A stretch of DNA of 59,403 nucleotides from a virus (Duplodnaviria > Caudoviricetes), in the IMG/VR virus record IMGVR_UViG_3300032297_000320, positions 1-59,403 of that record. One strand, given 5' to 3'. Position 1 is the stretch's first letter. Every line of letters begins with the position of its first letter. The position numbers and the translations under genes were made by a program. Below, one piece after another: positions 5,459 through 54,513 of this stretch. The notes under the pieces were generated by a model that saw only the letters and a program-made list of their open reading frames with translations, did no database searches and was not told where the DNA came from.

Positions 5459-5862
5459 TTAAGTACGAGAGAGAGCTGTTCAGGTTAATCAAGGAGCGAC
5501 TAGCTCCCGACTTAGAGTTAAGTGAGCATCAGATGTCTAAATATGATTGTTACTCAATTAGTTACAACGCAGACATCGAACTCAAGTGCAGGAACCGCCA
5601 CTATAACGATTTAGTTATAGAGAAGATTAAGTACGATGCTCTTGTCGCCCGGGCTTCTATGTTTGGAACGGTCCCGGTATATATCAACTCAACTCCCATC
5701 GGGGTGTGGTCGTTCCGTTTGACGGAGCTTCCAGAGCCATCGTGGGAGGAGCGTCGTATGCCAAAGACTACCCACTTCTCTAACAACAATATGATTGTCA
5801 AGGTGGTAGGATACTACAATATTTCTTTAGGAAAAAACATAACGGACTTGCTAGGTTTGTAG
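5455..5862 (+). CDS. PD-(D/E)XK-like nuclease
   Basis: SKYDC...IELKCR...IEKIKY. Confidence 0.6.
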   Translation: MIKYERELFRLIKERLAPDLELSEHQMSKYDCYSISYNADIELKCRNRHYNDLVIEKIKYDALVARASMFGTVPVYINSTPIGVWSFRLTELPEPSWEERRMPKTTHFSNNNMIVKVVGYYNISLGKNITDLLGL

Positions 5863-5878
5863 CCTATTCATATCTTCG
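5846..5878 (+). promoter_or_regulatory. Promoter upstream of nrdB (ACTTG-N20-TATCTTCG)
   Basis: Same spacing as four other + strand promoters. Confidence 0.6.
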
Positions 5879-5888
5879 CATTCCGTTT

Positions 5889-5912
5889 GGGTCACAGCTG
5901 TGGCCCTTTTTT
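5889..5912 (+). terminator. Intrinsic terminator-like hairpin
   Basis: gggtcacagctgtggccc followed by T6. Confidence 0.55.
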
Positions 5913-5934
5913 GTCTAATCTAAAACCAATCAAT

Positions 5935-6930
5935 ATGGGACTGTTCGACGAACGAATCCATTATAAGCCATTCGAGTACAACGTGTACTTCACAGATGGG
6001 TGGCTTCCTCAGGCACAAGCCTTCTGGCTTCACACTGAAATCCCAATGCAGGGTGACGTCAAGGACTTCCGAGAGAACCTTACGGACGCTGAACGCAATC
6101 TAGTTGGTAACATCCTACTTGGCTTTGCTCAAACAGAAACTGCTGTTGGTGATTACTGGACTAGTATGGTAACCAAGTGGTTTCCCAAGCACGAGATTAA
6201 GCAGATGGCTATGATGTTCGGATCACAGGAGACCATCCACGCTGCAGCATACAGCTACCTCAACGAGACACTCGGCCTTGAAGACTTCGAGGCATTCCTT
6301 CACGAGCCTTCTACCGCGGCACGCTTTGAGAACCTCGTAAACACTAAGGCAGGATATGATCATAACGTTCTGAAGATTAGCCCAGTAGGACGCAAAGACA
6401 TTGCTCGTTCTATCGCTGTGTTCTCTGCGTTTGCAGAAGGAGTAGCTCTGTACTCATCCTTTGCTGTTCTCTACTCGTTCCAGATGCGTAACCTACTTAA
6501 AGGTATTGGACAGCAAATGAAGTGGAGCGTACGTGACGAGAGCCTCCATAGTAAGATGGGTTGCGTTCTGTTCAACCACGTATGCCAAGAGTATCCTACC
6601 ATCCGTGCCGAGGTACGCAAAGAAGTAGAGGAGGCCGCACGTATTGCTGTTGATCTAGAGGTAAACTTCATCGACAAGATGTTTGAGATGGGGGACCTTG
6701 AGAACCTGAAGGCAGACGACCTTAAGGAGTTCATCAAGATGCGTGCAAACGAGAAGCTTGTTGAGCTTGGCTACGAAGCAATCATCCCATACGATGCTGA
6801 GAAAGCTGCTGAACTTGAGTGGTTCAACCACTTATCTGGAGGAGTAACACACACCGACTTCTTTGCTGTTCGCCCCACGGACTACAGCAAGGCAGGAGAA
6901 GGAGAAGACTTTGAGGACATATGGACGTAA
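5935..6930 (+). CDS. nrdB: Ribonucleotide reductase class Ia beta subunit
   Basis: ETIHAAAY, EGVALYSSF, RDESLH and TDFF diiron/radical motifs. Confidence 0.97.
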   Translation: MGLFDERIHYKPFEYNVYFTDGWLPQAQAFWLHTEIPMQGDVKDFRENLTDAERNLVGNILLGFAQTETAVGDYWTSMVTKWFPKHEIKQMAMMFGSQETIHAAAYSYLNETLGLEDFEAFLHEPSTAARFENLVNTKAGYDHNVLKISPVGRKDIARSIAVFSAFAEGVALYSSFAVLYSFQMRNLLKGIGQQMKWSVRDESLHSKMGCVLFNHVCQEYPTIRAEVRKEVEEAARIAVDLEVNFIDKMFEMGDLENLKADDLKEFIKMRANEKLVELGYEAIIPYDAEKAAELEWFNHLSGGVTHTDFFAVRPTDYSKAGEGEDFEDIWT

Positions 6931-38215: not shown

Positions 38216-39910
38216 TTAGGCGGTTAAGGAAGCGAGGTCAGCGTTTGAAAGGCGGGTCTTGAATAGTAGGGCTTGGTTAATCCTATCGCCATAAGTATAG
38301 GCGCTTGAATAAGAGAATTTGCCTAATGCTATTTCCGTCATCGTGGGAATGGTACACGATGTGTCTACGGAGCCCATTATTGTTCCATCAAGGTAGGCCA
38401 CCGTATTGTTTAACTCGTAGGATATGGCTAATTTATGGCGGCCGACTGTTAGCGTTCTGCTTTGCGAGAATTGGGCTACGCCATTGTCAAGCATAAAAAC
38501 ACCCACACTATTACTGCCAGCGCTACCATAAATCTCAATAAGTTCGGCAGAACTTGCGCCCATTACGGTCATAACTGGCCAAAATGAATCCTTTGAACCC
38601 GAAAATTCAAAATCCACGAATACGGTGCCAGCGGTCTGCCCAATCAAAGAGCTGATACCCGTTTTGCTGCACGCATCCGCCCCCCTTGTCACCGCTGCTC
38701 CCAATGTGGGGATGTACGAGGTGGCGTAGGCTCCTGCTTCTACCTGTGCGCCCCAAAAATATGACACCGAAGCAGCTGACAAAGTGCGGCTGCTGCTTGT
38801 ACTTGAAATGCCAAACTGAAAATAGTCAAGCGATTTGTTTGATGTATTGGTCAACGTACAGCGGAACCAGCCATTGCCGTAATTTTCAATAGCACCAGTA
38901 AAGCCGCTTATTTGGTTAGCAACAGTCCCAGCCTCAATGTCAAACCAAACTTTTGCGCTTTCGCTATTGGTTGGGCTGAAAATGTATAGATACTTTCCGC
39001 CACTAACGTACTTTGCAAAAATTGAAATAGAATATATTGCGCTTGAGCCGCTAACCGACTTATAACAAGACGAATCCGCAGAAGCATCAAAAGCGAACTT
39101 ATCTGCGTTTTGATATCCGTCTGGACTTGTGGTAAAATTTTGGGTTAGGGTAAAGTTAACGCTTACCCATTGACTAAACTGCTCCGAATAGTTTATAAGG
39201 TTTGTCCGCTGTGGTTCAAGCAACAGGCGAGGACAAGTACTATTCAAGTAGTCCAAACGGGGTAACCCACTAACAGGGCCAACGCTTACCGCTGCGGTGG
39301 TGGTGGCGATGTAGTCTGTTGCTACGTCACCAACTTCTACTTGGTATCCGTAAATAAGCACGTCAGTAGCAAGCTGCTTTGCATCAACGCCAACAAATAC
39401 AGAAGTAACTGAAGTTGTTTGTGTATAAGAAACACGAGTCCAAGAAGTAGTAGCCGTTACTGTTGCAACAGCACCACCTTGAAACTGAACATACAACTCT
39501 TGTGCGCTTGCAGTATTTGACTTAATCCAAAATGAAACATTGTACGGAATACCATTTGTAAGCGTTAAAAGTTGACGTACAAAAGCTCGGTCTGAAGTTG
39601 TAGCGATTGTTGCTAACCAACGCTGGGCATTACTGCCTCCCGTTGGGTCGGTGAAACCAGTAGTAACTGCACTTGTGTAAGTTCCTACACCGCCTTTAGT
39701 CCAAGCAGCATTATCAAACGCCTGCGAGTAGGTAATAAGGTTCGTACGCACCTTCTCAATAAGCCCATCGGGGCCGACTCGGGTGGCGGTGTCGTTTGAC
39801 CTTGAAAATGAAAGGTCCGCTGCCCCATCTGTAGGTACAGCGCAGTAGACTTTTGACGTCTTATACCCTGAGGGTATCATAACTACTGACGCATCACTGT
39901 AAAAACTCAT
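38216..39910 (-). CDS. Spike/fibre protein with carbohydrate-binding and LamG-like domains
   Basis: ATRV...GLIE, two RTNL..YS modules, G.QVE.G..AT.YI.T, PRLDY, LLLEPQRTN, C-terminal LamG-like region. Confidence 0.75.
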   Translation of the reverse strand: MSFYSDASVVMIPSGYKTSKVYCAVPTDGAADLSFSRSNDTATRVGPDGLIEKVRTNLITYSQAFDNAAWTKGGVGTYTSAVTTGFTDPTGGSNAQRWLATIATTSDRAFVRQLLTLTNGIPYNVSFWIKSNTASAQELYVQFQGGAVATVTATTSWTRVSYTQTTSVTSVFVGVDAKQLATDVLIYGYQVEVGDVATDYIATTTAAVSVGPVSGLPRLDYLNSTCPRLLLEPQRTNLINYSEQFSQWVSVNFTLTQNFTTSPDGYQNADKFAFDASADSSCYKSVSGSSAIYSISIFAKYVSGGKYLYIFSPTNSESAKVWFDIEAGTVANQISGFTGAIENYGNGWFRCTLTNTSNKSLDYFQFGISSTSSSRTLSAASVSYFWGAQVEAGAYATSYIPTLGAAVTRGADACSKTGISSLIGQTAGTVFVDFEFSGSKDSFWPVMTVMGASSAELIEIYGSAGSNSVGVFMLDNGVAQFSQSRTLTVGRHKLAISYELNNTVAYLDGTIMGSVDTSCTIPTMTEIALGKFSYSSAYTYGDRINQALLFKTRLSNADLASLTA

Positions 39911-40490
39911 AACTCCAAAAATAATTATTGTGACTCTTTATTACTCCCCTGCATACTTTTGATATTGCGTTTTCATCAGAGCCTGTGGCTAAGGCTGCGA
40001 TTCTTACACTGTTATACTGACGCAGTGGTTCTTTTTCTTTTGTGTATTGATAAACGATTTTTCCTTTTCCTTTTCTTGCTTCAACTGATGCAAAGATAGC
40101 CTTTGTAATATCAATCCTATTATTCTCGTAAGCGTGTTTAGAATTCTCACTATGAGTTACCCATTCTAAATTTTCAACATTATTGTTCCTTGGATTGGAA
40201 TCAATATGGTTTACGAGTTTTTTGTTTTCTGGATTTTGTATAAATGCTTTGGCGACTAAGCGATGAGCTTTATTGTAGTGTCTTTTACCGTCCTTCTTTA
40301 AATAGTAGACTACATATGGATAAACTAAGGATCCAAGTTCAGGAATTAAATTGCCTCCTTTTTTAAACACTAAAAATTCTTTTCCAAGCTTAGACTTGCT
40401 TTTTATGAATCTATCTAATGATCGAACATTACCATAGCTACTAACTTGGTATTCACTTTCGTATCCTTCTATGTCTCGCCAAACTTCCAT
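39894..40490 (-). mobile_element. Free-standing NUMOD4-HNH homing endonuclease with C-terminal NUMOD1-like HTH
   Basis: EVWRDIEGYE..YQVSSYGNVRS, HRLVAKAFI.NP...VNHID....NN.VENLEW; visibly AT-rich. Confidence 0.92.
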
Positions 40491-51023: not shown

Positions 51024-51146
51024 ACGGCAAAGATAGTAACAGCAATAATAGCTGTTTTATGGACCCATAAGAAAAATAAACTCCTACTAATTTAGTAGAT
51101 ATTTATATAACTATCTGAAAGACACACCAATAAACTAACATCTACC

Positions 51147-51179
51147 ACTTGACTTTCTCGTTTTTCTTTTGTAACTTCG
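51147..51179 (+). promoter_or_regulatory. Promoter (ACTTG-N20-TAACTTCG) facing the non-coding region
   Basis: Same spacing and TCTCG element as the promoters at 455 and 56687. Confidence 0.6.
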
Positions 51180-51438
51180 CTAAGGCTAGAGCCGATAGAC
51201 AGAACGCAGACTAACTAAGCTCTCTTATCATCGAGAGCCTACTTAGCCTACCAAACAAAGAAGGGGCGGCGCCTCAGCAGAGCCCCCACCCCACCGCCGA
51301 GAGCAAACAAAGCTCAAGCTCCTAAGATCCGCTCAGCTACCCATAATACAGGCGTACTATACCCCAACCATAGCTGTTCAAATCATAACAGCAAATCAGT
51401 TGGCTCTAATAGTTTTTTCTTTTTATTACAGCCAACTT

Positions 51439-51538
51439 GTATCTAGGGACCACAAATAAGTATCTAGGGTTACAAATAAGTACCTAGGGTTAGATATAAG
51501 TATCTAGTGGTGCAAATAAGTACCTAGGGGATTATATA
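51439..51538. repeat. Five tandem ~20-bp imperfect repeats (GTAYCTAGGG..ACAAATAA)
   Basis: Units start at 51439, 51460, 51480, 51500 and 51520. Confidence 0.9.
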
Positions 51539-51970
51539 CATAATCGATCGTTCGCGCGCGCGTACGGAAACCGATTCCCAGACGTATGGGGTTGCGTTTG
51601 ACAGCATTTCGTTCGTAGGTTTCAGCGTTTTGCCCACGTGACTCTCGTGATGAACTGACTGATTTTGCTGAGGGTTTTGACTTGAGTTCCTAGGGAAAAA
51701 GGAGGAACAATCCCCCCCCTACTTCACCCCTTTCTGCCCACTATCTCCCACCCCTACCCACGTGCTATGCGCACTTGTGCACGTGCTCACGTGTGTGCGT
51801 TACGCGTGTGTGTGCGCGCATTATGCGCGTGCGCGAGCCAAAGGAATTCGGTTAGCTTTATCCATCATTTTGAGCAATGGATGTATAGTTTCGTTCAATT
51901 TGCGGTTTGCCTATTGTGGGTTCGTTTCGGCTAACTACATTCGCAGTGTTAAACCATTAAAACAATTGCT

Positions 51971-52285
51971 ATGACTCCTTCATCACTTTACAACACCCCC
52001 TCACTCGGAGACTTCATTAAGAGCACCTACGGCGAGATACCTTCGGTCGAGGTTTTGACTGAGCAGGTAGAGAACAACGTACGCCGCCTTGCTGAACTTG
52101 AGTCACGTGTTCCGAACTTCCTTAAGGAGAAAGAATTCGCCTTCGTTGACTTGCGTCGTGAGGTTATCACCTTGCAAGATATTGAGGACTACGAGTACGA
52201 CACTGCTGATGTGAACTACCACTGCAAACGTGCGAACGAACTGCTCACTAAGGTTGAGCAACGTGCGACTAAGTTAGGCTACTAA
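51971..52285 (+). CDS. Early hypothetical protein
   Basis: ATG after TACATTCG promoter-like motif and an A-rich leader. Confidence 0.7.
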   Translation: MTPSSLYNTPSLGDFIKSTYGEIPSVEVLTEQVENNVRRLAELESRVPNFLKEKEFAFVDLRREVITLQDIEDYEYDTADVNYHCKRANELLTKVEQRATKLGY

Positions 52286-52316
52286 AAATTTGAAAAACCG
52301 AAAAAACTGTTCTGCT

Positions 52317-52511
52317 ATGAAAACTAAAAAATCAAACCTATACTCATTCTTTGTCTTAATCGGAGGCGGAGTAGTTCACAAGGAGGTATACCGCCGTGAG
52401 ACTAAGTGTCCTAGTCGCACTAAGGAGTACAAGGTAGTTCGGTGTATGTTCGAGAACTTCAGTGGTGCTGAGGTGCCCATCGTGGGCTACGGATACGAAA
52501 TCGTTAAATAA
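52317..52511 (+). CDS. Early hypothetical protein
   Basis: ATG 52317. Confidence 0.6.
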   Translation: MKTKKSNLYSFFVLIGGGVVHKEVYRRETKCPSRTKEYKVVRCMFENFSGAEVPIVGYGYEIVK

Positions 52512-52529
52512 GTTAAAACTTTCTATGCT

Positions 52530-52727
52530 ATGAAAGTGCATACGTATTCCTTTGGGGGCCTTAAAATTAGGGTTTGCTACCATCGTGATGCCGAGGGTGC
52601 GCTGAAGTGGGCTGTGAGTTCTCCTGAGTTCGATGTGTGTGAATATACTGACGAACTATGGGCAACGAAGGGTGAGGCAATCGAGGCGGGTGTGTATGCC
52701 GCAAAGAGGTTAACTGAGGAGTCCTAG
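52530..52727 (+). CDS. Early hypothetical protein
   Basis: Stop codon lies inside hammerhead 1. Confidence 0.65.
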   Translation: MKVHTYSFGGLKIRVCYHRDAEGALKWAVSSPEFDVCEYTDELWATKGEAIEAGVYAAKRLTEES

Positions 52728-52757
52728 GTGGACGAAACGTCGCGAGACGTCTTAACC
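52708..52757 (+). ncRNA. Type I hammerhead ribozyme 1
   Basis: ggttaa-CTGAGGA-gtcc(taggt)ggac-GAAA-cgtc(gcga)gacg-TC-ttaacc: full core, three perfect stems, cleavage predicted after C52751. Confidence 0.93.
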
Positions 52758-52774
52758 ATAAAACAATCAAAACA

Positions 52775-53017
52775 ATGACTATTAAGGACTATTATCTGAA
52801 AAACTTTTCAACTGATGAATTAGGTTTGGAACTTAATTGCAAACCAACATTTGCAGGTCTTTTGCACCAACTTCTTATTGGTAAATGTGTTTACGAATAC
52901 ATTGGTGTATACGATTCAATTGTGCGAGAAATGTTATTTGAGGAACTTGCAAGAGAGATAGAAACACCTTATAAGTTTGTTTACGACCTATGGTTAAACA
53001 ATAGTGAAAAAGGTTAA
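52775..53017 (+). CDS. Early hypothetical protein bracketed by two hammerheads
   Basis: 80 aa, AT-rich; stop TAA is part of stem I of hammerhead 2. Confidence 0.75.
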   Translation: MTIKDYYLKNFSTDELGLELNCKPTFAGLLHQLLIGKCVYEYIGVYDSIVREMLFEELAREIETPYKFVYDLWLNNSEKG

Positions 53018-53065
53018 CTGATGAGGACTAAATGTCCGAAACAAGGAGCAATCCTTGTCTTAACC
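53012..53065 (+). ncRNA. Type I hammerhead ribozyme 2
   Basis: ggttaa-CTGATGA-ggac(taaat)gtcc-GAAA-caagga(gcaa)tccttg-TC-ttaacc; cleavage predicted after C53059. Confidence 0.95.
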
Positions 53066-53082
53066 ATAAAACAATCGAAACT

Positions 53083-53286
53083 ATGAACACTTCAATTGAA
53101 AGCATCGTTGCATACGAGAGCGGAGAGCTCACTGATCAGGAGGTCGTGTACTTCTTTGCCGAACTTGTGAAGAGCGGTCTAGCCTGGAATCTTCAGGGTC
53201 ACTACGGACGGACTGCGAGTGCGCTAATTGACCACGGACTAATTGACGAGCAAGGAAACGTTTCTCTTGCTGTTCTAGAACTTTAA
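53083..53286 (+). CDS. Early protein with LQGHYGRTA motif
   Basis: YESGEL...F..L..SGLAW.LQGHYGRTA; ATG 53083. Confidence 0.75.
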   Translation: MNTSIESIVAYESGELTDQEVVYFFAELVKSGLAWNLQGHYGRTASALIDHGLIDEQGNVSLAVLEL

Positions 53287-53309
53287 TAACCGCCAACGAA
53301 ATCTAACTT

Positions 53310-53519
53310 ATGAAAACTTATCAATTCATCGTGACTGTGAGCAACAGCACCATCGTCGAGGTTCAATCTGAAAACTACGAGGAGGCCGTCGGACTTGCGC
53401 TGAAGGAGTTCCACGAGAGTGAGGTCATCCACGATCTATGCGACCCACGCTCTATGGGTGTTGACATTGAGCTCGAAGAGGAGTTTGATGGTGAGGTACC
53501 AGAAATGTATCCACTTTGA
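53310..53519 (+). CDS. Early hypothetical acidic protein
   Basis: VEVQSENYEEAV motif; A-rich leader. Confidence 0.65.
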   Translation: MKTYQFIVTVSNSTIVEVQSENYEEAVGLALKEFHESEVIHDLCDPRSMGVDIELEEEFDGEVPEMYPL

Positions 53520-53584
53520 CCGAAAATGTGTTTTGCCGAACAAACAATTCTTTTAACCTTTGACTAACCAACGAAATAATTAAA
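53517..53584 (+). promoter_or_regulatory. Early promoter/leader cassette, copy 1
   Basis: tgac.gaaaatg.gttt..g...aattcttttaacctttga..aaccaac.aaa.aattaaa, repeated at 54058. Confidence 0.65.
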
Positions 53585-53587
53585 ACT

Positions 53588-53743
53588 ATGAAACAATTAG
53601 AATCAGGAGCGGCATCGCTCAAGGTGGAACTGCACAAGGGGGTGATTAGTGTCTACCACGGAACGGACGGCACTTTGCTGTTCACCCGCCCTGCCTTCGA
53701 GGGAGACTGGGGCAAACTTTTTAATCAACTTAAAAACAACTAA
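53588..53743 (+). CDS. Early hypothetical protein (51 aa)
   Basis: Hand-translated MKQLESGAASLKVELHKG... Confidence 0.6.
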   Translation: MKQLESGAASLKVELHKGVISVYHGTDGTLLFTRPAFEGDWGKLFNQLKNN

Positions 53744-54129: not shown

Positions 54130-54513
54130 ATGAAAAACACAATGAGCCTTTTAGAAGCCGTAGAATTCCTGGTAGGACTTCAGGACGGTGAGAACGACCA
54201 ACTTGCTCAGGCAATAGATGTAGTCGTTGGCGGACTTAAGTTTGGCCACGAGGAATTCAATCAAGTAGAACTATCTTCCTTAGCCTGGACCGCAGAAGAC
54301 TTTGATAACCACGTTGAAGGGTTGTACGACCTAGGAAAGATTGACGAGTCAACAGCAAAGAAGCTTATGGCCTATCGTGAGTCTGAAAAGCTAGGTATTG
54401 TTTCGAACGCAATCGAAGATATCGAGGACTCAATTATGGAGAAAATAAATGACAGCATTTTCTTACGTGTTCGTATAGAAGCTAACCAAGTAAAAAATCA
54501 AAGCAATGCCTAA
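54130..54513 (+). CDS. Early hypothetical acidic protein
   Basis: ORF directly after the promoter cassette. Confidence 0.65.
   Translation: MKNTMSLLEAVEFLVGLQDGENDQLAQAIDVVVGGLKFGHEEFNQVELSSLAWTAEDFDNHVEGLYDLGKIDESTAKKLMAYRESEKLGIVSNAIEDIEDSIMEKINDSIFLRVRIEANQVKNQSNA

Follow-up and report, generated by a model that had tools for sequence, protein, structure and literature searches.

Two hammerhead ribozymes of the same polarity that enclose a single small gene raise the question of what the segment between them is: an mRNA that is cut out of a longer transcript, a circular RNA, or a piece of mobile DNA. Such a pair was found in the genome of an uncultured lake phage. The window that was analyzed is the entire virus record, i.e., 59,403 bp with an estimated completeness of 98%. 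The features of the locus are compiled in Table 1.

Table 1. Features of the ribozyme-bounded locus, given in window positions
Feature	Position	Strand	Remarks
Upstream 65-aa gene	52530..52727	+	TAG stop (52725-52727) inside loop II of HH1
HH1, type I hammerhead	52708..52757	+	predicted cut between 52751 and 52752
308-nt unit between the predicted cuts	52752..53059	+	GC 0.33; missing from G001
First leader, 23 nt	52752..52774	+	A-rich, without Shine-Dalgarno motif; starts with the stem I 3' strand TTAACC
Cargo ORF, 80 aa	52775..53017	+	TAA stop within stem I of HH2 (5' strand)
Alternative-helix segment TATGGTTAA	52990..52998	+	within the cargo ORF; 9-bp pairing with TTAACCATA at 52752-60 or 53060-68
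HH2, type I hammerhead	53012..53065	+	predicted cut between 53059 and 53060
Second leader, 23 nt	53060..53082	+	initial 17 nt identical to 52752-52768
Downstream 67-aa gene, DUF7417 / phrog_3908	53083..53286	+	E 4.8e-23 and 2e-23; 96% identical in G001

Judged by their sequence, both elements are genuine type I hammerhead ribozymes of the active type. Each carries CTGANGA, GAAA, the A..T pair that closes stem III, and C17, and in both copies three helices are arranged around the core, and no mispair adjoins it. Stem I is open and holds the 5' and 3' ends, whereas loops cap stems II and III. The order in HH1 is GGTTAA of stem I, the core segment CTGAGGA, a stem II of 4 bp with a 5-nt loop, GAAA, a stem III of 5 bp, C17, and TTAACC. 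HH2 has the same stem I and the core segment CTGATGA, and its stems II and III differ from those of HH1 through compensated changes. The pattern CTGANGA..CGAAAC occurs twice in the window, compared with 0.28 matches expected by chance. When the two elements were folded alone, the minimum-energy structure was a three-way junction in both cases, with z values of -1.33 (HH1) and -4.11 (HH2). A covariance model (R1) was built from 60 hammerheads, all of them from other viral contigs, and the whole window was searched with the filters off. HH2 was recovered with 66.1 bits (E 1.3e-14) and HH1 with 61.5 bits (E 1.9e-13), while the next best match had 12.6 bits, and therefore the genome contains exactly two ribozymes of this kind. 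A search of the window with Rfam at gathering thresholds yielded 0 matches. RF00163 gives HH1 22.6 bits versus a gathering value of 34, which is the curated cut-off of one model and no structural criterion. HH2 appears solely under RF03152 (RAGATH-1, an upstream hairpin plus a hammerhead), for which scores of 25.1 (HH2) and 20.3 bits were obtained versus the 56.3 bits required.

The alignment of the 60 relatives revealed that CTGA, GA, and CGAAA are invariant, and that C17 and its neighbors are conserved in at least 90% of the sequences. Eleven of the 15 base pairs vary on both sides, and 99.8% of the alignment cells are paired, versus 25-41% with slid partners; the rows of this alignment had been pre-selected by a scan that demanded pairing. 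Stem I is nearly fixed in the alignment, and the 5-nt loop II is conserved as U-N-A-N-U with an invariant first U, from which loop II of HH1 (TAGGT) deviates in its central base. It is likely that a tertiary contact exists. A pseudoknot between loop II and the leader was also considered by eye and was dropped, because the complementary partner is missing in HH2. An exact search of the viral collection with stem III of HH2 retrieved 0 stretches, and thus no donor of this copy could be identified.

The two copies belong to a subfamily with a stereotyped position relative to genes. The pattern with the stem I sequence GGTTAA/TTAACC was found in at least 120 stretches of viral contigs, many of which hold two to six copies on one strand. 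When stem I was left unconstrained, other compensated versions surfaced, e.g., GTAACA/TGTTAC and GTATTA/TAATAC. An ATG-initiated ORF of at least 30 aa starts 16-32 nt past the cut in 133 of 150 distinct contexts (median 22.5 nt), versus 505 of 5000 random positions on the same strands (10%); the loci were chosen for the stem I pattern, and as some contigs are near-duplicates, the counts for the subfamily are not independent. The control of this survey with reversed sequences gave 1 match. In the window, the DUF7417 gene starts 23 nt past the second predicted cut. The stop codon of the upstream ORF lies inside the ribozyme in 90 of the 140 contexts that have an upstream ORF, and in 46 more it lies within 30 nt before the ribozyme. 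These stop positions and the spacing of the start codons indicate that hammerhead plus leader form a compact intergenic module, which comprises stop codons together with a cleavage site and the leader of the next gene. Among 53 adjacent hammerhead pairs, many form units of 180-450 nt around one small ORF; at one locus (L011) two identical hammerheads, 363 nt apart, flank a single 96-aa ORF.

As an additional observation, the 5' half of the ribozyme contains stop codons in two frames, namely TAA within GGTTAA and TGA within CTGA, and in HH1 the TAG of loop II covers the third frame. As the ribozyme stops are invariant in two frames and HH1 adds the loop II TAG, the module can end any preceding ORF.

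The genes on the plus strand from position 51971 onward are tightly packed with tiny gaps. Five promoter-like sites were counted versus 8.2 in shuffled sequences, and five terminator-like sites versus 6.1, i.e., neither is in excess in a scan that did not extend to promoters of Bacteroidota. With the same scope, no sigma-70-like or terminator-like site was listed for positions 52700-53100. The packing of the genes and the lack of an excess of promoters or terminators would be compatible with one long transcript. A Shine-Dalgarno-like 4-mer precedes only 4 of the 66 ORFs, and the leaders are A-rich. In a collection of genomes from 185,579 species the ribozyme pattern was present in only seven stretches, and matches on chromosomes or large scaffolds were confined to the Chitinophagaceae (Paraflavitalea, Niabella); the host probably belongs to the Bacteroidota.

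Two contigs of 373 and 361 nt, which are about 92% alike, stem from two possible RNA sequencing runs with word shares of 0.05 and 0.04. They cover positions 52465-52777 and 52479-52762, respectively, and then depart from the window, and they are uninformative about expression, RNA ends, or circles. By eye, their loose ends would seem to represent HH1 and the leader with a DUF7417-like gene start right behind. A further observation concerns the plus-strand genes at 51971, 53310, 53588, 54130, and 54506, which have no hammerhead but a TAACC(A)-like motif some 20-25 nt upstream of the ATG. The motif resembles the start of a leader after cleavage, and it may represent either an element common to the leaders or a remnant of a ribozyme.

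The gene between the two ribozymes differs from the rest of the genome in composition. Its GC content is 0.33, its GC3 0.26, and its T3 0.40, compared with gene means of 0.463, 0.504, and 0.269. In all three measures it ranks first among 66 crudely called ORFs, with the lowest GC, the lowest GC3, and the highest T3, which bears out the preliminary description, according to which this ORF is more AT-rich than its neighbors and prefers codons ending in T. It can be argued from this foreign composition that the cargo was acquired at some point. The predicted product is a real, conserved, all-helical protein. It has 16 database homologues, with 25 invariant columns, and 370 stretches were retrieved from metagenomes; the closest homologues are P0001 (96% identity) and P0002 (91%). 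Neither a Pfam nor a PHROG family was found for it. The predicted structure is all-helical with a pLDDT of 93.7. With Foldseek, neither PDB nor BFVD yielded a match at E <= 0.001, and no fold match was assigned from the best Z of 4.5 in VIA-align or from the Atlas scores, which were at most 0.78. For the 65-aa product of the upstream gene, a weak match to DUF6566 (E 0.0083) stayed below the cut-off. A protein search with this product matched a single contig, that of the relative G001 described below, with a homologue of 92% identity.

To compare the contexts of the cargo gene, 83 loci with cargo relatives (80 metagenomic and three viral) were scanned with R1. A hammerhead within about 1.5 kb was detected at two of them (L159 and L003). 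In L159 it lies directly 3' of the cargo relative, and in L003 one lies directly 3' and a second one with a variant core is found farther upstream. These two loci are also the nearest contextual relatives (73-78% identity). The remoter homologues are native to AT-rich phages, where they are flanked by promoter-like repeats and lack ribozymes. The presence of the gene without flanking ribozymes, which is one half of what the preliminary description had named as a refutation of its own reading, was thus encountered at 81 of the 83 loci; L003 and L159 have kept the downstream hammerhead. In the L003 variant (2731-2783), the core region is enlarged by three bases (CTGAAGATGAG). This variant still scored 55.8 bits with R1, and its activity is uncertain.

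It had also been proposed that related phages might contain an empty site with one hammerhead. A distant-mode blastn search of the phage record collection with positions 52300-53600 yielded no match. Such a site was found in a relative of 92-95% identity, G001, the contig of locus L006; over the last 9.4 kb, its identity to the window ranges from 86 to 95%. G001 contains one hammerhead in the whole record, and the cargo gene occurs nowhere in it. The homologue of the upstream gene directly precedes this lone hammerhead, which combines an HH1-type body with an HH2-type leader variant at the aligned positions and lies directly before the DUF7417 gene. The difference between the two genomes amounts to about 304-308 nt. 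Both flanks align to one and the same 75-nt module, and the difference ends inside the repeated ribozyme/leader sequence; the longest exact repeats at the borders of the unit are 20 nt and 11 nt. As to the direction of the event, a deletion between repeats in G001 and an insertion in the lineage of the window would give the same picture. The more distant L003 has the cargo in the same neighborhood, and thus G001 may have lost it by a deletion between the repeats. A second clean case of an indel that comprises an ORF and a hammerhead was found in the comparison of L081 with L141.

The ribozymes probably punctuate a polycistronic early mRNA, and the genes that they enclose would be subject to ordinary cassette exchange at conserved intergenic modules. 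According to this proposal, the two type I hammerheads are embedded in an extended series of small early genes that all run in one direction, and each would cut the common RNA 23 nt ahead of the next start codon, during or after transcription. The downstream cistron would then begin with 5'-OH-UUAACC, in a short leader that is rich in A and has no Shine-Dalgarno motif, and the upstream cistron would end in the compactly folded ribozyme, which bears a 2',3'-cyclic phosphate; cleavage might influence translation or stability. The preliminary description had stated that double cleavage would release a 308-nt RNA with one leader and one ORF, and the predicted cut coordinates and the anatomy of the locus agree with this: the unit contains the 23-nt leader, the single 80-aa ORF, and the body of HH2. 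In view of the predicted cuts and the defined ends that they would give to both cistrons, the 308-nt product is most likely a linear single-gene mRNA for the 80-aa protein. On the DNA level, leader, ORF, and downstream hammerhead would together represent a compositionally foreign cassette that is present or absent, and exchange would take place through the usual recombination of phages, at intergenic sequences that are short and conserved; hammerhead plus leader would be one of these and not a special one. A functional parallel is provided by synthetic insulators of the RiboJ type, in which a ribozyme before the leader sets the 5' end regardless of the upstream sequence; RiboJ is an engineered part, and the likeness to the phage module is one of function only.

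The exchange of genes at this locus could alternatively be brought about by a dedicated ribozyme-based system, in which the hammerhead repeats are the preferred joints that mobilize ORF cassettes. A precedent for a modular exchange is known from the PeSL of T4-type phages (Arbiol et al., 2010, PMC2839356; Comeau et al., 2014, PMC4122927), which, as described in these sources, are likewise intergenic modules, of a mobile and regulatory kind, that accompany small, dispensable ORFs within an early region of variable content, and in which indels between close relatives also end. The same two properties were observed here, i.e., small ORFs stand between copies of an intergenic module, and the indels between close relatives end within this module, in the present case in its exact repeats of 20 and 11 nt. 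Like the PeSL regions, the region is hyperplastic. A further close relative, G003 (L132), has flanking genes that are 96% identical to those of the window and three hammerheads around different small genes. In contrast to the PeSL, which by their description consist of an early promoter and a stem-loop terminator, the module of this phage consists of a ribozyme and a translation leader. To characterize the breakpoints, the fetched loci were compared all against all. Among 148 indel or replacement events between related contigs, 120 had a hammerhead at no breakpoint, and in seven of 55 pure indels at least two breakpoints had one; the pairs depend on one another, the counts were taken without a formal null, and neither an enrichment nor a depletion is claimed. 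Of the three local differences between the window and G001, two occurred without a hammerhead. One of them is a small gene at 52333-52526, which is replaced in G001; the borders of the replacement are conserved and lie at the start codons. The other is located at the junction 54491-54508, where G001 has an extra 66-aa ORF that is bounded by a leader repeat of about 15 nt (AAAAAATCAAA..ATG).

Moreover, the genome contains only two hammerheads, and leaders of hammerhead-free genes share the TAACCA-type motif, so that the leader and not the ribozyme may be the common joint. A dedicated shuffling system thus appears unlikely, and the view of the hammerheads as joints of a gene-shuffling array, put forward in the preliminary description, was overstated. 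The more modest proposal that the cassette was gained by recombination between ribozyme repeats fared better in part: the foreign composition, the empty-site relative, and the recurrence of hammerhead-bounded indels (L081/L141) argue for it, but most indels and replacements took place without a hammerhead. It looks as if recombination acted on conserved leaders as a whole class. At one further locus (L075, about 5600-6020 on the minus strand, compared with L044) an inserted ORF was noticed, the right border of which consists of TTAACC and a hairpin that resembles stem III of the neighboring hammerhead, without a core. It may be a decayed hammerhead at the edge of a cassette.

Another fate of the 308-nt RNA would be the joining of its ends, by the host RtcB or by reversal of the hammerhead reaction, into a stable circular mRNA that contains an intact HH2. 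The ends produced by hammerheads have, in principle, the right chemistry for joining by RtcB. The stem I 3' strands of the two ribozymes and the following 11 nt are identical (52752-68 and 53060-76), and joining of 53059 to 52752 would therefore recreate HH2 exactly; the earlier statement that end-joining would rebuild an intact hammerhead from the common stem I was thus confirmed. Beyond the identical part, the two leaders can be told apart by A at 52769 and 52774 versus G at 53077 and T at 53082. In a wider sample, which has a bias from the pattern by which its loci had been chosen, the stem I ends are compatible in 40 of 49 distinct adjacent pairs and mismatched in nine. Pairs of type I hammerheads in animals have been described to yield circular RNAs (Cervera and de la Pena, 2020, PMC7229834). 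Nevertheless, the formation of a coding circle appears improbable. The ORF has a stop codon of its own and a normal leader, and nothing in the sequence demands a circle. Stem I consists of just 6 A/U-rich base pairs, the predicted fold pairs the 5' end of the unit with TATGGTTAA at 52990-52998 and thus away from the 3' end, and the rebuilt HH2 would cut itself again. Searches of the 98%-complete phage genome for RtcB, an RNA_ligase of the Rnl2 type, and RVT_1 gave no match, and the phage thus seems to lack a ligase of either kind. Circular or spliced products of hammerhead clusters in phages had been sought before, and none was detected according to a statement given as "data not shown" (Perreault et al., 2011, PMC3088659); searches of the literature yielded no report of circles from phage hammerheads.

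The resemblance to animal retrozymes (PMC7229834; reviewed in PMC7761336) comprises two hammerheads of the same sense, a unit of a few hundred nucleotides, and ends that could be ligated. As described in these sources, retrozymes are intermediates of non-coding retroelements of eukaryotes, whereas the present unit is coding and belongs to a dsDNA phage. It does not fit a definition of retrozymes as non-coding elements mobilized by reverse transcription, because it encodes the conserved 80-aa protein and the genome has no match to RVT_1. The boldest reading would unite the RNA and the DNA level: in this widespread group of phages without Shine-Dalgarno motifs, the stretch of about 75 nt of stop codon, hammerhead, and leader would be a portable cistron adaptor, which would set the RNA ends, permit translation of the following small gene, and act as DNA joint in the swapping of single-gene cassettes, and some of the excised RNAs would be circularized in the course of infection by the host RtcB into long-lived coding circles. 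Its chances are rated as low as those of the coding circle itself.

The efficiency of cleavage is uncertain, because competing folds were predicted for both ribozymes in their context. The minimum-energy folds of the 308-nt unit and of positions 52975-53085 adopt the 9-bp helix of TATGGTTAA and TTAACCATA, which displaces the 6-bp stem I, and about 35 nt upstream of HH2 are sufficient for this swap in the prediction. For HH1 in its context the hammerhead is likewise not the minimum-energy fold. Neither L003 nor L005 has kept the 9-bp pairing, which could damp the cleavage of HH2 or be due to chance. These competing folds could be taken to mean that the ribozymes are inactive relics, or RNA structures that only protect 3' ends or cause pausing without cleavage in vivo, but this is hardly credible, because all positions of the catalytic core are kept in both copies and in the 60 relatives while the stems covary, a pattern that is unexpected for a mere hairpin.

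The arrangement is of a kind that was published in 2011, and it is an ordinary instance and no new class. In that study, multiple hammerheads were reported to flank single genes of phages and prophages, the identity of which was not constant, in vitro cleavage was seen for every ribozyme of three tandem arrangements, circular and spliced products were already considered, and the cutting of long phage transcripts into gene-length mRNAs was proposed as the role (Perreault et al., 2011, PMC3088659). The locus shares with these clusters the presence of several hammerheads, uniform in polarity, on both sides of single genes or short gene blocks. Compared with the main-text description of the clusters, it differs in that it belongs to an uncultured lake phage with genes devoid of Shine-Dalgarno motifs, in the nearly fixed stem I GGTTAA/TTAACC, in the U-N-A-N-U loop II, and in the position of the cut 16-32 nt before the start codon. 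In addition, a nearly identical relative that lacks exactly one unit is documented here. The empty-site relative as well as the size and regularity of the subfamily make this instance more useful. A review of 2019 stated that the purpose of phage hammerheads needs additional work (PMC6765202). Genes without Shine-Dalgarno motif and with a fixed distance of about 23 nt from cut to start, nearly identical phages that differ by one ribozyme-bounded gene, and at least 120 related contigs constitute a natural test set. With this set it can be asked whether cleavage controls the translation or stability of the downstream cistron, and whether the ribozyme/leader modules promote gene exchange.

A comparison with RNA viruses is instructive in this respect, because hammerheads in their 5' UTRs were reported to enable the initiation of translation (Lopez-Galiano et al., 2026, PMC13725137), which makes the fixed spacing to the start codon worth testing. 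As described in that report, these hammerheads are also of type I and lie just before an ORF, and tandem pairs enclose segments of 186-399 nt. There, cleavage makes the 5' end that is translated, in a eukaryotic and cap-independent setting, whereas an effect in bacteria would have to be extrapolated from it.

Two minor observations were made elsewhere in the genome. An ORF of 198 aa on the minus strand (39894-40490) is a second compositional outlier, with a GC content of 0.34 and a GC3 of 0.27, and it may also have been acquired. In the non-coding region of about 950 nt between the divergent gene blocks (51024-51970), a 20-nt unit (GTATCTAGGGTTACAAATAA) is repeated in tandem at 51439-51529, with 4.5 copies. 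These repeats look like iterons, and they may represent an origin or an array of binding sites for a regulator.
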